Made by a program: the position numbers and the translations under genes. From Polyangia bacterium (lineage in GTDB: Bacteria > Myxococcota_A > Polyangia > Palsa-1104), in assembly GCA_035607415.1 (NCBI GenBank), contig DATNAQ010000031.1, positions 85,357 through 149,356 on the forward strand: 64,000 nt of DNA, in the 5' to 3' direction. The notes under the pieces are model-generated. The model did no database searches and was not told where the DNA came from. It saw only the letters and a list, made by a program, of their open reading frames with translations. Below are positions 29,938-40,807 of this stretch, piece after piece; within the stretch, counting starts at the first letter, position 1; the number at the start of each line of letters is the position of its first letter.

Positions 29938-30318
29938 GTGCTGTTCGATCTGGCCAGCATCTTCTTCTTCGTGGTGGTCGGGCTGAGCGTACCGCTCGCG
30001 ATGCTCACGCTCGGCTGGCTGGTGCGCCCGCACACGCCGAATCCCGAGAAGCTGGCGACCTACGAGTGCGGAGAGCTGCCGGTGCAGGCAGCGTGGTTCA
30101 ACTTCAATCCGCGCTTCTACATCGTGGCGCTGGTGTTCCTGGTGTTCGACGTGGAGGTCGCGTTCACCTATCCGGTCGCGGTGGTGTTTCGCCGCTGGGT
30201 GGCGCGCGGCGCGGGCGGCTTCGCGTTCGCGGAGCTCGGCGTGTTCGTGGCGATCCTCGCGCTCGCGCTCGCGTACGTGTGGCGGCGGGGTGACCTGCGC
30301 TGGATCCGCGACCGATGA
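29938..30318 (+). CDS. nuoA: NADH-quinone oxidoreductase subunit A
   Basis: 126 aa, three TM segments. It contains the conserved YECGE.P and FDVE(V)AF motifs. Confidence 0.9.
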
Positions 30319-30791
30319 CCGCGGCGGCCGACGAGGTGGTGCGTGTGCGCGCCGACGAGTGGCGCGCCACGGCCGAGCGGCTGCGCGCCGAGGGGTTCGA
30401 CTTTCTGCAGAACCTGACGGCGGTCGACTGGATCAAGGACGAGCGGATCGAGCTCGTCTATCACTTGTGGTCGTACGCGCGGCGCGCCGGCTGCGTGGTG
30501 AAGATCGACGTGCCGCGCGCGCAGCCGGAGGCGCCGTCGGTGGCGAGCGTGTGGCGCGCGGCCGATTGGTACGAGCGCGAGCAGTTCGACCTCCTCGGCG
30601 TGGTGTTCGCGGGGCATCCGGATCTGCGGCGCATTCTCATGCCCGACGACTGGCCGGGGCATCCGATGCGCAAGGACTACGTCGAGGCGACGTCGTATCG
30701 CGGGATGCCGACGACACGCGCGAACACGCTCGAGCTCTTGCCCATCTGGGACAAGTCGCGCGGCGAGACGAAGCCGGACGGAGCGAAGTGA
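30315..30791 (+). CDS. nuoC: NADH-quinone oxidoreductase subunit C (30 kDa subunit)
   Basis: The ATG overlaps the nuoA stop (ATGA). Motifs: [46 protein letters not shown]. Confidence 0.9.
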
Positions 30792-37511: not shown

Positions 37512-39344
37512 ATGACTGCGATCGCGCTGATGATGACGCTCCTGTCGGTGACGCCGTCGTCGCTGACGTTCGACGGCGCCGGCGAGAAGCTGCTGCACGT
37601 GCGCAACGACGGCGACGCGGCGGTGCGCATCGAGCGCGCGGAGCTGGCGCCGGGATCGGACGGCTTCGCGCTGCAGCCGACGAACGGGCGCGTGCTGCAG
37701 CCGGGCGAGAGCTACGAGCTGCGCGTGGCCTTTGTCCCCGACGGGCGGCACGCGCAGGCGTTCGGCGGCGTGCAGCTCCACGCGGCCGACGGCGAGGTCA
37801 CGGCGGTGGCGGTGCGCGCGGGCGGATCGTGGCTGCTGACGCTCATGATCTTCTTCCCGCTCGTGGGCGCGGCGCTGGTGATGCTGGCGCCGCGCGGGCG
37901 GCACGCGCTGGTGCGCGCGATCGCGCTCGGGACCTCGCTGGTGCCGCTCGCGGCGGCGCTGCACGCGGTGGCGCACTTCGACGGCGCGGGCGGGCTGCAA
38001 TTCGTGCAGCACGTGGTGTGGATCCCGGCGTTCAACGTCGAGTACTTCGTCGGCGTCGACGGGCTGTCGATCCTGATGGTGCTGCTCACGGCGCTGATCT
38101 CGACGATCGCCATCCTCGCCAGCTTCGGGATCGATCAGCAGGTGCGCGGCTACTTCGCGCTCGTGCTGCTGCTCGAGACGGGGATGCTCGGCACCTTCGT
38201 CGCGCTCGACTTCTTCCTCTTCTACATCTTCTGGGAGCTGATGCTGGTGCCGATGTATTTCCTCATCGGCATCTGGGGCGGGCCGCGCAAGGAGTACGCG
38301 GCGATCAAGTTCTTCCTCTACACGCTCGTCGGCTCGGTCTTGATCCTGCTCGCCATCATCGCGCTCTACTTTCACGCGGCGCCGACGGCGCTCGTCGACG
38401 GCACGCCGGTGCAGCACACGTTCGACATGCTCAAGCTCGCGAGCAATGACTGGGCGCACAAGGGGCTGACGCTGTTCGGCTGCGACTTCTCGCGCGTGGT
38501 GTGGGTGGCGTTCTTCATCGGCTTCGCGATCAAGATCCCGATCTTCCCGCTGCACACCTGGCTGCCGGATGCGCACGTCGAGGCGCCGACGGCGGTGTCG
38601 GTGATCCTCGCCGGCGTGCTGCTCAAGATGGGCGCCTACGGCATCCTGCGCGTGAACTTCGCGATGCTGCCCGCGGCGACCGAGTGGGCGGCGACGACGA
38701 TGACCGTGCTCGGCGCCATCAACATCGTGTACGGCGGGCTGTGCGCCTTCGCGCAGACCGATCTGAAGCGGCTGGTCGCGTACTCGTCGGTGAGCCACAT
38801 GGGCTTCTGCCTCGTCGGCATGGCCTCGTTCACCGACGTGGGGATGAACGGCGCGATGCTGCAGATGTTCAACCACGGCACGATCACGGCGATGCTCTTC
38901 CTGCTCGTCGGCGTCCTCTACGATCGCGCGCACACGCGGCAGATCGACCGTTTCGGCGGGCTGGCCGCTGCGATGCCGCGCTATGCCTTCGTGCTCGGCC
39001 TCGGGTTCTTCGCGTCGCTCGGGCTGCCGGGGCTGTCCGGCTTCGTCGGCGAGCTGCTGGTGTTCCTCGGCGCCTTCGCGGCGCATCGCGTGGTGGTGGC
39101 GATCGCGCTCTTCGGCGTGGTCATCACGGCGGCGTATCACTTGTGGGCGCTGCAGCGGGTGCTGCTCGGACGCTGGAACGAGGGGTGGCGCGATCGCGCG
39201 CAGTTTTTCGATCTGACCGCGCGCGAGAAGCTGACGCTGGCGCCGCTGGCGGCGTTCGTCATCGTGCTCGGCGTGTGGCCGATGCCGCTGTTGCGGCTCG
39301 TCGGGCCGGGGCTCGGCGAGCTGGTCCGCCACGTGCTCGGCTGA
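37512..39344 (+). CDS. nuoM: NADH-quinone oxidoreductase subunit M with a ~105-aa N-terminal beta-sandwich extension
   Basis: AAGGAG lies 8 nt before ATG 37512. The NuoM core runs from about residue 106 (LLTLMIFFPLVGAALV ... FYIFWELMLVPMYFLIGIWGG ... KIPIFPLHTWLPDAHVEAPT ... YSSVSHMGF). There is no stop codon between the extension and the core. Confidence 0.85.
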   Translation: MTAIALMMTLLSVTPSSLTFDGAGEKLLHVRNDGDAAVRIERAELAPGSDGFALQPTNGRVLQPGESYELRVAFVPDGRHAQAFGGVQLHAADGEVTAVAVRAGGSWLLTLMIFFPLVGAALVMLAPRGRHALVRAIALGTSLVPLAAALHAVAHFDGAGGLQFVQHVVWIPAFNVEYFVGVDGLSILMVLLTALISTIAILASFGIDQQVRGYFALVLLLETGMLGTFVALDFFLFYIFWELMLVPMYFLIGIWGGPRKEYAAIKFFLYTLVGSVLILLAIIALYFHAAPTALVDGTPVQHTFDMLKLASNDWAHKGLTLFGCDFSRVVWVAFFIGFAIKIPIFPLHTWLPDAHVEAPTAVSVILAGVLLKMGAYGILRVNFAMLPAATEWAATTMTVLGAINIVYGGLCAFAQTDLKRLVAYSSVSHMGFCLVGMASFTDVGMNGAMLQMFNHGTITAMLFLLVGVLYDRAHTRQIDRFGGLAAAMPRYAFVLGLGFFASLGLPGLSGFVGELLVFLGAFAAHRVVVAIALFGVVITAAYHLWALQRVLLGRWNEGWRDRAQFFDLTAREKLTLAPLAAFVIVLGVWPMPLLRLVGPGLGELVRHVLG

Positions 39345-40807
39345 TGCTCGACAACGCCCACAGCCTGGCCGCGTTCGCACCCGAGCTCGTGCTCGCGGCG
39401 ACGGTGCTCGTCGTGCTCGCGGCCGATCTGGCGGTCGGGCGGCTGCGCATCGGCGCGGTAGCGGTGCTGTCGCTCGTCGGCGTAGCGGCGGCGGCGTGGG
39501 CCACGCTCGCCACGGCGGGGGCGCCGCGCGGGCTCTTCTTCGGGCTGGTCGCGCGCGATCCGTACGGCGACTTCTTCAAGCTGCTGTTCCTGATGACGGC
39601 GGCGCTGGTGGCGCTCGTGGCCCTGCGCGCGGGCGACGCCGTCGAGGAGAGCGCGGCGGAGCTCTATGCGCTCCTGCTGACGACGACGCTCGGCATGATG
39701 CTGATGGCGGCGGCGCGCGATCTTCTCATGGCGTACCTGTCGCTCGAGACGGTATCGATCATGAGCTACGTGCTCGCCGGCTTCCGGCGGCGGGCGCGCG
39801 CGTCGGCCGAGGCGGCGCTGAAGTACGTCGTCTACGGTGGCGTGGCGTCGGGCGTGATGCTCTACGGCATGTCGCTCTTCTATGGCCTGGCGGGCGCGAC
39901 CAGCTTTCCGGCGATCTTGCAGGCGGCGGGCTCGACGACGGCGGCGCCGACGGTGGTGCTGGCGGTCGTGCTGTGCCTCGCCGGGTTCGGCTACAAGGTG
40001 GCGTCGGTGCCGTTCCACATGTGGTGCCCCGACGTGTACGAGGGCGCGCCGACGGTGGTGAGCGCGTTTCTCGCGGTCGGGCCCAAGGCCGCCGGCTTCG
40101 CGCTGCTGCTCCGCTTCTGCGCGGGCGTGCTGCCGGCGGAGCTTGGCGGCGCGCCGGCGCCGTGGCCCCTCCTCTTCGGGCTCGTCGCGGTGGCGACGAT
40201 GACGCTCGGCAACCTGGCGGCGCTGGCGCAGACGAACGTCAAGCGCCTGCTCGCCTACTCGTCGATCGCGCATGCCGGCTATTTGCTCCTGGCGATCGTC
40301 GCCGGTGGGCGCGACGGCGTGCGCGCGCTCTTGCTCTATCTCGTGGCCTACGTGTTCATGACGCTCGGCGCGTTCGTCGTCGTGATCGCGGTGGCCGAGC
40401 GCGGCGTCGGCGACGAGCTGCCGGCGTGGCGCGGGCTCGGGCGGCGCGCGCCGTGGGCGGCGGCGTCGATGACGCTGTTCCTGCTCGCGCTCACCGGGCT
40501 GCCGCCGCTGTCGGGCTTCTTCGCCAAGTTCTACGTGTTCTACGCGCTGGTGGCGCGCGGCGGCAGCTTCATGATCGCGCTCGCCGTCGTCGGCGTGCTC
40601 AACTCGACCGTGTCGCTGTACTACTACGCGCGCGTCTTGAAGACGATGTACTTCGAGGCGGCGCCCGAGCAAAGTGGCGACACGGAGCTGCCGCTCTACA
40701 AGCTTCACACGACGCTGCTGGCGCTGTTGGCGGCGCCGACCGTGGCCCTGTGCGCGGTCTGGCAGCCGCTCGCTCGCTTCGTCGACGTCTCGCTCTCGCA
40801 GTGGTAG
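39344..40807 (+). CDS. nuoN: NADH-quinone oxidoreductase subunit N
   Basis: ATG at 39344 overlaps the nuoM stop by 1 nt. Motifs: SLETVSIMSYVLAGF, KVASVPFHMWCPDVYEGAPT, AYSSIAHAGYLL. Confidence 0.9.
   Translation: MLDNAHSLAAFAPELVLAATVLVVLAADLAVGRLRIGAVAVLSLVGVAAAAWATLATAGAPRGLFFGLVARDPYGDFFKLLFLMTAALVALVALRAGDAVEESAAELYALLLTTTLGMMLMAAARDLLMAYLSLETVSIMSYVLAGFRRRARASAEAALKYVVYGGVASGVMLYGMSLFYGLAGATSFPAILQAAGSTTAAPTVVLAVVLCLAGFGYKVASVPFHMWCPDVYEGAPTVVSAFLAVGPKAAGFALLLRFCAGVLPAELGGAPAPWPLLFGLVAVATMTLGNLAALAQTNVKRLLAYSSIAHAGYLLLAIVAGGRDGVRALLLYLVAYVFMTLGAFVVVIAVAERGVGDELPAWRGLGRRAPWAAASMTLFLLALTGLPPLSGFFAKFYVFYALVARGGSFMIALAVVGVLNSTVSLYYYARVLKTMYFEAAPEQSGDTELPLYKLHTTLLALLAAPTVALCAVWQPLARFVDVSLSQW

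Follow-up and report, generated by a model that had tools for sequence, protein, structure and literature searches.

A complex I-type operon without nuoB in uncultured Polyangia and the probable supply of NuoB from another locus

The DNA analysed in this work is a window of contig DATNAQ010000031.1 (the whole stretch, 64 kb), and the system in question is a complex I-type (nuo) operon on its forward strand. The host of the operon is an uncultured member of Polyangia (Myxococcota) from soil and the guanine-plus-cytosine (GC) content of the window is about 70%. Ten open reading frames (ORFs) at 29938-40807 (+) were identified as nuoA-C-D-H-I-J-K-L-M-N from the ORF listing, Pfam, and NCBIfam, which is the tightly packed gene set that an earlier note on this DNA had claimed. 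The Pfam E-values of the ten Nuo products range from 1e-22 to 1e-110. NuoC, NuoD, NuoH, NuoK, NuoL, NuoM, and NuoN also score above the curated NCBIfam cut-offs. The junctions from nuoA to nuoK are, in order, overlaps of 4, 1, 4, 4, 4, and 4 nucleotides (nt), and they are followed by a 1 nt gap (nuoK-nuoL), a 16 nt gap (nuoL-nuoM), and a 4 nt overlap (nuoM-nuoN). No gene can be hidden between the nuo genes because they are all joined by overlaps of 1-4 nt or by gaps of 16 nt or less. The operon holds in cis ten of the 11 core subunit genes and nuoB is the absent one. The nuoD gene overlaps nuoH directly, hence no gene of the NADH-oxidising module (N-module; NuoE, NuoF, and NuoG) lies between them. 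The nuoD start at 30791 is the same as that called on L001, an independent contig from JGI, and a protein identical to NuoA of the window precedes nuoC on that contig and on a second one (L002). The coordinates of the genes are shown in Table 1.

The absence of nuoB, nuoE, nuoF, and nuoG from the window, which the earlier note had also claimed, was borne out by every search. The NuoB family (PF01058) does not match any of the ten nuo products in the Pfam and NCBIfam searches, so that no NuoB domain was found concealed in a called gene. Regular expressions for the NuoB, NuoE, and NuoF signatures found nothing within a real ORF in all frames of the window. The tblastn searches of the window with NuoB (three types), NuoE, NuoF, and NuoG returned nothing at E<0.01. 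The queries were Escherichia coli NuoB, NuoE, and NuoF, two myxobacterial NuoB types, and one myxobacterial NuoG. Of the E. coli queries, NuoB matched strongly in other loci and NuoE and NuoF matched in metagenome loci, which validated them. The best match of a NuoB hidden Markov model (HMM) to the 913 six-frame segments of the window has an E-value of 0.22. No redox module was detected by Pfam in the 30 flanking ORFs of the window, which encode kinases, a sigma-54 activator, peptidases, a phosphoribosyltransferase, a ClC channel, a methionyl-tRNA synthetase, and others.

Table 1. Genes and features of the nuo operon in the window (aa, amino acids).
Feature	Position	Strand	Description
nuoA	29938-30318	+	126 aa; PF00507 E=1e-31
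nuoA stop/nuoC start overlap	30315-30318	+	4 nt; site of nuoB in relatives
nuoC	30315-30791	+	158 aa, short NdhJ-like form; PF00329 E=1e-43; TIGR01961 above cut-off
nuoD, quinone-site subunit	30791-31927	+	378 aa; PF00346 E=3e-80; NF004739 above cut-off
nuoH	31924-33525	+	533 aa; PF00146 at residues 161-475; N-terminal extension of ~150 aa
nuoI	33522-34457	+	311 aa; 2x[4Fe-4S] core (Fer4 families) and C-terminal PF04060 E=2.5e-9
PF04060 4Fe-4S domain of nuoI	~34236-34391	+	Pfam
nuoJ	34454-34996	+	180 aa; PF00499 E=1e-31
nuoK	34993-35298	+	101 aa; PF00420 E=3e-22; NF004320 above cut-off
nuoL	35300-37495	+	731 aa; PF00361 and PF00662; NF005141 612 bits (cut-off 556)
nuoM	37512-39344	+	610 aa; PF00361 at residues 231-539; TIGR01972 590 bits
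nuoN	39341-40807	+	488 aa; PF00361; TIGR01770 398 bits (cut-off 333)

The relatives of the operon were collected by using NuoI. The NuoI search identified at least 682 homologues, nearly all with the same PF04060 fusion, and the named homologues are from Polyangia or Myxococcales metagenome-assembled genomes (MAGs). A NuoI scan of one genome per species identified 398 relatives. A total of 80 loci were taken, almost all from Myxococcota MAGs, and the subunits of the fetched loci were mapped by tblastn. The order A-C-D-H-I-J-K-L-M-N without nuoB (clade 1) is exhibited by the window and by 22 other distinct loci where nuoA and nuoC are both visible. These 23 B-less loci belong to uncultured Polyangia or Myxococcota from independent MAGs and metagenomes, and the GC content of clade 1 ranges from 0.42 to 0.72. 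This order is limited to the clade of the window among the loci compared. The spacer between nuoA and nuoC is -1 to 285 bp in the 23 B-less loci, and in 34 loci with nuoB it is 700-940 bp, or 2.4-2.8 kb where a gene has been inserted. Only noise was obtained when the A-C spacers of 21 B-less loci were searched for remains of nuoB. The tblastn searches for NuoE, NuoF, and NuoG in all clade 1 loci were also negative. The exact NuoC of the window was found on two JGI soil contigs, where the order is also A-C-D, and it occurs in the JGI soil data sets 3300025921 and 3300010373. The assemblies with the B-less operon include CAWFMP01 (MFD06435.bin.2.192), CAWAWS01 (MFD04540.bin.2.104), PNAM01 (palsa_1104), JAQBQH01 (RYN_368), DASREC01, and SHYY01. 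The nearest genome is MAG MFD06435.bin.2.192 (4.05 Mb contig, L099), with NuoI that is 92% identical where it is unbroken. Its synteny with the window extends from the kinases upstream through the polyamine genes downstream.

The earlier note had proposed phylogenies to see if the cluster forms a distinct clade, and in the neighbour-joining trees of NuoD the B-less loci do form one clade. L080 (A-B-C-D-H-I) is among the nearest to this clade, together with several nuoA-B-C-D mini-clusters that group with each other, and clade 2 (described below) comes next. The B-less state is an inherited feature of the clade and not an artefact, because the order is shared by 22 other loci and their NuoD sequences are monophyletic. 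An artefact of assembly, binning, or gene calling that removed nuoB has in its favour only the prior that MAG data may be fragmentary. It is effectively refuted by the same A-C junction on two independent JGI contigs, by the same order in 22 independent loci, which come from various projects and assemblers, and by the negative six-frame HMM search. The operon might also be a decaying or silent remnant that lost its function along with nuoB, as the absence of an essential subunit gene from the cluster would suggest. However, we find this scarcely credible. The ten ORFs are intact and their junctions are translationally coupled, and the order is kept across a deep clade (42-72% GC) with all subunits conserved. 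There is no trace of a nuoB pseudogene, and the only frameshifts seen among the clade are those in the nanopore MAG (L023/L099).

The other relatives exhibit several layouts. Clade 2 consists of loci with the order A-B-C-D-H-I-J-K-L-M-N, which are often located head-to-head with a second nuo cluster. Some Polyangiaceae loci consist of I-J-K only or of H...I-J-K-L-M-N. The search with the NuoB of L080 identified stand-alone nuoA-B-C-D in all nine contexts examined, which are from different sub-branches and include the complete genome of Minicystis rosea (CP016211). The eleven nuo genes are thus routinely spread over two to four loci in Polyangia. The earlier note had allowed that the operon would be ordinary if it were a part of a routinely split and already characterised nuo system, and half of this was found, as nuoA-B-C-D stands alone in nine of nine contexts and nuoI-J-K or nuoH...I-J-K-L-M-N are found alone. 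Since the relatives routinely split the nuo system, an unlinked nuoB is a layout variant and not a sign of a remodelled catalytic core. The earlier claims on the gene set and the fusions are borne out and the subunits look functional, but the claim of a remodelled complex is weakened. The B-less operon is an unusual arrangement of genes and probably no novel type of enzyme.

Three loci of soil Polyangia (L092 9513-10973, L093 5578-7329, and L094 1142-2602) have an unrelated gene on the reverse strand between nuoB and nuoC. These insertions indicate that the B/C junction is a recurrent breakpoint.

The second nuo cluster ('type ii') is divergent and consists of nuoA-B-C-D-G-H-I without adjacent nuoE or nuoF and without nuoJ-N. 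It was found at 1950-8485 (-) of L084 and also in L061, L068, L073, L078, L085-L088, L107, and L112. This cluster is located head-to-head with the 11-gene cluster in many Myxococcota, and its NuoD is distant from the B-less clade in the tree. Shared subunits are hinted at by the local presence of two peripheral-arm sets with one membrane-arm set. The second cluster has nuoG without nuoE and nuoF, which indicates that N-module genes are already unlinked in this phylum.

NuoD is the best-conserved and slowest-evolving subunit in all comparisons. Most of clade 1 shares 74-88% identity in NuoD. The values are 64-71% for the two deepest members and 60-65% for the comparison with clade 2. The identity of NuoL and NuoN to clade 2 is 40-52% with one outlier of 25%. 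The subunit identity profile between clade 1 and clade 2 matches the profile between two B-containing sub-clades, and no accelerated evolution of NuoD as a sign of a partner switch was seen in these identity comparisons. The quinone-site His (..THGV) and Tyr (..DY..; PYTDRVDY) motifs of NuoD are kept and are identical in B-containing relatives. These motifs correspond to the quinone-ligating His38 and Tyr87 of Thermus thermophilus Nqo4. Further motifs of NuoD, including the C-terminal one, are identical or nearly identical to the B-containing consensus. Both membrane glutamates of NuoK (GVELIL and AAAEAA), read from the sequence, are also kept. As NuoD is unrelaxed and its motifs are intact, the quinone (Q)/N2 module appears to be unchanged and under purifying selection. 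The His and Tyr residues of the quinone site of NuoD have been discussed previously (PMC4758237).

The three fusions of NuoI, NuoH, and NuoM that the earlier note had reported were all seen, and the NuoI fusion is the PF04060 4Fe-4S domain. The CxxCxxCxxxCP motifs of NuoI for clusters N6a and N6b (CTACKACERDCP and CMYCGICVESCP) are invariant in 17 homologues, and so are C246, C249, C254, and C272 of the C-terminal domain. Residues 240-294 of NuoI match TIGR01944 (rnfB) in NCBIfam, and the RnfB chain 7zc6_B was matched weakly. The C-terminal domain in the AlphaFold model of NuoI has a predicted local distance difference test score (pLDDT) of about 90, and the core is poorly modelled (pLDDT <50). 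The model of this domain resembles the 4Fe-4S domain of 2ycl_A, a corrinoid iron-sulfur (Fe-S) protein, at 1.6 A over 52 columns (prob 0.98), with a Foldseek E-value of 0.54 that is not significant alone, so that the predicted likeness in fold is taken only as agreement with the sequence profiles.

The N-terminal extension of NuoH consists of a lipoprotein-type signal and a beta-rich domain upstream of the first transmembrane helix (TM1). It is probably periplasmic because it is preceded by the lipoprotein-type signal. A lipobox-like unit is repeated threefold in the signal peptide (residues 20-34; window 31980-32025), and this short tandem repeat is in frame and coincides with the site where the lipoprotein is predicted to be cleaved. 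The N-terminal extension of NuoM (~105 aa) is also upstream of TM1 and has no cysteines, and its match to the ASH domain is weak and below the cut-off. An insertion rich in His, Asp, and Glu is present in NuoL at residues ~408-470 (window 36520-36710), right before the conserved DMRNMGGL motif, and NuoL of L014 has a comparable His-rich insertion.

The NuoI Fe-S fusion was seen directly in L083, a relative that keeps nuoB. In clade 1 and the B-containing L080, L060, L062, and L067, either the NuoH span is longer or nuoD and nuoH are about 1 kb apart, which suggests, from coordinates and not from sequence, that the NuoH extension is shared with nuoB-keeping relatives. The NuoI Fe-S domain and the NuoH extension are not tied to the loss of nuoB since the former is found, and the latter apparently so, in relatives that keep it. 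The NuoI domain was thus rejected as a NuoB substitute because it co-occurs with nuoB (L083), and the NuoH extension was rejected because, by coordinates, it apparently does so too.

These results bear on whether the complex could be free of NuoB. The N2 cluster would then be dispensed with or replaced by the NuoI Fe-S domain or an unrelated protein, or the complex would be a non-redox ion translocator. Such a remodelled complex would agree with the three subunit fusions of the lineage, and with the failure to find NuoB in the window, around nuoI of the other B-less loci (at most 10 kb to either side), or linked to their genomes. We nevertheless regard it as very improbable. The NuoI Fe-S domain and apparently the NuoH extension occur with nuoB in relatives, and the NuoH and NuoM extensions precede TM1, with the former probably periplasmic and the latter free of cysteines. 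NuoD is the slowest-evolving subunit and keeps the exact N2/Q-site motifs. NuoB supplies all four ligands of N2 and a part of the Q cavity in solved structures (T. thermophilus 4HEA and others), and N6b is too distant from the quinone for direct electron transfer. There is likewise only a very slight chance that the whole Polyangia clade does without NuoB/PSST and obtains N2 and the cavity from a non-homologous part or from a rerouted transfer (for example, through the NuoI 4Fe-4S domain). With NuoD, NuoI, and NuoK intact and with this role of NuoB in N2 and the cavity, it is simplest to suppose that the enzyme retains NuoB as a subunit and that the gene for it is at another place.

The preferred explanation is that the operon encodes a functional enzyme of the NDH-1-like 11-subunit type without an N-module, and that nuoB has moved out of the operon and is supplied in trans; we consider this likely. 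The operon would provide ten of the 11 core subunits of a proton-pumping quinone reductase (nuoABCDHIJKLMN-type). The nuoB gene would have been lost cleanly from between nuoA and nuoC in the common ancestor of the clade. The enzyme would still need NuoB because NuoB carries cluster N2 and forms a part of the quinone cavity. NuoB would be made from another genomic locus, either from a relocated dedicated copy or from the second cluster with its NuoB shared by two enzymes. The unchanged NuoD weakly favours a partner similar to type i NuoB.

The borrowing of NuoB from another locus, proposed in the earlier note, thus remains the most likely reading, but no NuoB could be linked to a B-less genome. 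A set of 5.8 billion proteins was searched with a clade 2 NuoB profile and the NuoB of L080, and the best 120 matches were considered for each. Several results of the searches weigh against a NuoB in trans. No NuoB among the matches listed can be assigned to any B-less genome, and none of the best 120 matches is on the contigs of 4.05 Mb, 788 kb, and 386 kb that carry B-less operons. No NuoB was found in the window (tblastn and HMM) or in the 22 other B-less loci up to 10 kb on either side of nuoI. The nine NuoBs examined among the listed matches to that of L080 are all in A-B-C-D clusters, and none of them is an orphan. The missing linkage is weak evidence against NuoB being supplied in trans.

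Two candidates for the trans copy were rejected. The P0318 NuoB is on a 1.97 Mb MFD contig that belongs to MAG ERZ25039513 and not to ERZ25039558, the MAG of L023/L099. The metagenomes were also scanned with an 'ancestral-like' NuoB consensus for orphan nuoB genes. Stand-alone nuoB genes without nuoA or nuoC nearby were found at 3466-3957 of L108 and 3030-3530 of L109. Orphan nuoB genes do therefore exist. The genes around these two are a CdnL-like gene, a fatty-acid desaturase gene, a small conserved ORF, and a histidine kinase gene, at a GC content of 0.55. Their NuoB is 94-96% identical to the NuoB of an ordinary nuoA-B-C context (L110). The GC content, the flanks, and the NuoA and NuoB similarities give no link between these genes and the B-less clade.

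A NuoB of mixed type was also observed on a Logan contig of 950 bp (P0357). Its N-terminal half is identical to the A-B-C-D type (P0244), and its C-terminal half is of the orphan/L110 type, with about 105 residues identical to L109 and a match to the C-terminus of L110. This contig was probably assembled as a chimera, with the two types joined across the conserved stretch CCAIELMQTGGPRAD.

In the proposed enzyme with NuoB supplied in trans, electrons would most likely enter at NuoI, where the extra RnfB/corrinoid Fe-S protein (CFeSP)-type 4Fe-4S domain is at the chain's open end. From there, their path would be through N6a/N6b to N2 (NuoB) and to the quinone at NuoD/NuoH. The reduction of the quinone would drive proton pumping by NuoH, NuoJ, NuoK, and NuoA together with NuoL, NuoM, and NuoN. 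Ferredoxin or another partner could reasonably deliver electrons to the extra cluster of NuoI, because the Fe-S chain has its open end at NuoI when there is no N-module. We infer both the existence of the trans nuoB gene and the site of electron entry from these comparisons.

A donor other than NADH, which the earlier note had proposed, is plausible for this enzyme, but the same holds for every 11-subunit enzyme and an N-module supplied in trans is the alternative. The donor of complex I-like enzymes with 11 subunits has not been established and ferredoxin is suspected (PMC11238625, PMC4758237). The alternative is that NuoE, NuoF, and NuoG also attach in trans, which would make the enzyme an NADH:quinone oxidoreductase with scattered genes and would be compatible with a trans-encoded NuoB. 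This agrees with the scattering of nuo genes in the phylum and with the second cluster (A-B-C-D-G-H-I), which has no adjacent nuoE or nuoF. Non-NADH input is not separable from NuoEFG in trans on the gene layout, because this second cluster of the relatives also has no nuoE and nuoF in cis. However, we consider an N-module in trans rather unlikely. Clade 1, clade 2, and the split forms are consistently without nuoE, nuoF, and nuoG in cis, and NuoC, NuoD, and NuoH are closest to the subunits of ferredoxin-dependent NDH-1. NuoI also carries the extra conserved 4Fe-4S domain where NuoG would dock, and NuoG, where present, is in the other, phylogenetically distant cluster.

The operon was compared with known systems. 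It is similar to the 11-subunit clusters termed 'NUO11' by Degli Esposti (2015) (Desulfitobacterium hafniense DCB-2 and Chlorobi) in having no NuoEFG, in the remaining gene set and order, and in its complex I-type Q-module (PMC11238625, PMC4758237). Those clusters hold nuoB between nuoA and nuoC, whereas the operon of the window does not, and the latter further differs in the added PF04060 domain of NuoI and the N-terminal extensions of NuoH and NuoM. The complex I-like type with 11 subunits is reportedly associated with Moparthi and Hagerhall (2011). By analogy, the cluster of the window may be described as 'NUO11 minus B'. The nomenclature of Degli Esposti (2015) already allows 'split' clusters and 'NUO14minus-X' (PMC4758237).

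The operon is also similar to the cyanobacterial and chloroplast NDH-1, a ferredoxin:plastoquinone oxidoreductase (6hum, 7wff), which has no N-module and to which the best relatives of NuoC, NuoD, and NuoH among solved structures belong. These are cyanobacterial NdhJ for NuoC (6hum_J), NdhH for NuoD (6hum_H), and chloroplast and cyanobacterial NdhA for NuoH. The NDH-1 genes are scattered over several genomic loci and unlinked core genes are normal there. However, NDH-1 keeps NdhK (NuoB) beside ndhC and ndhJ. NDH-1 also binds ferredoxin through NdhS, NdhV, and NdhO, none of which was seen in the window, whereas the extra Fe-S domain of the window is on NuoI.

The closest systems are the Myxococcota nuoB clusters and the split clusters of Polyangiaceae (Minicystis rosea CP016211, L032, L083, and L095), which are sister clades with NuoD that is 60-68% identical. 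The nuoB clusters share the NuoI-FeS fusion (verified directly for L083). Unlike the operon of the window, these clusters keep nuoB in cis, either in a full operon or in an A-B-C-D mini-cluster. The C-terminus of NuoI is similar to the N-terminal domain of RnfB and CFeSP, as it matches PF04060 and TIGR01944 with four invariant cysteines, and it differs from them in being fused to a complex I subunit.

Several other enzyme types were rejected. The 14-subunit NADH:quinone oxidoreductase was rejected as there are no NuoE, NuoF, and NuoG genes in the window. A group 4 [NiFe] hydrogenase was rejected as NuoD has no NiFe-ligand cysteines, with no CxxC at either end, and the small subunit is absent. 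NdhH and Nqo4 are matched far more strongly than the Mbh, Mbx, and FHL chains. The FpoC, FpoD, FpoH, FpoI, FpoK, and FpoL models score far below their cut-offs and no FpoF-like gene is present in the window, which excludes Fpo. No specific description of nuoB-less clusters or of the organisation of myxobacterial complex I genes was found in the literature, nor was any experimental work on the 11-gene or split nuo clusters of Myxococcota.

If nuoB is merely unlinked, the value of this finding is mostly practical, in that pipelines based on cluster completeness would miscall complex I in abundant soil Polyangia. The series of full operon, B-less operon, and fully scattered genes is a natural set for studying the tolerance of operon break-up. 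If one NuoB serves the second cluster too, this would be evidence for mix-and-match isoforms of complex I. The NuoI-RnfB-type fusion could help to identify the electron source of 11-subunit enzymes independently of the missing nuoB. A NuoB-free pump, if true, would separate NuoD from NuoB, although the two form a universal pair in systems ranging from [NiFe] hydrogenases to mitochondrial complex I.

Some members of the B-less clade have other genes within the operon. In two loci from activated sludge, L007 (11068-13679) and L009, subunits II and I of cytochrome c oxidase are encoded between nuoI and nuoJ, together with two small ORFs. The cytochrome oxidase genes within the nuo operon of these two clade members fit a respiratory role.

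The neighbourhood of the operon was also inspected. The genes for N-carbamoylputrescine amidase (CN_hydrolase) and agmatine deiminase are located just after nuoN on the same strand (window 40820-42808), and these polyamine genes are also neighbours in L099, the closest genome. Co-transcription with the nuo operon is possible, as the neighbours are conserved in L099. Immediately upstream of the nuo operon there is a kinase and activator pair, which is also syntenic in L099. The window is rich in FHA-domain proteins and Ser/Thr kinases (15571-16518, 24216-25607, 50783-53365, and 21373-28273). There are three FHA proteins, one of which is fused to a sigma-54 activator, and one kinase has a PEGA domain. 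This richness in FHA proteins and kinases is typical of myxobacterial signalling.

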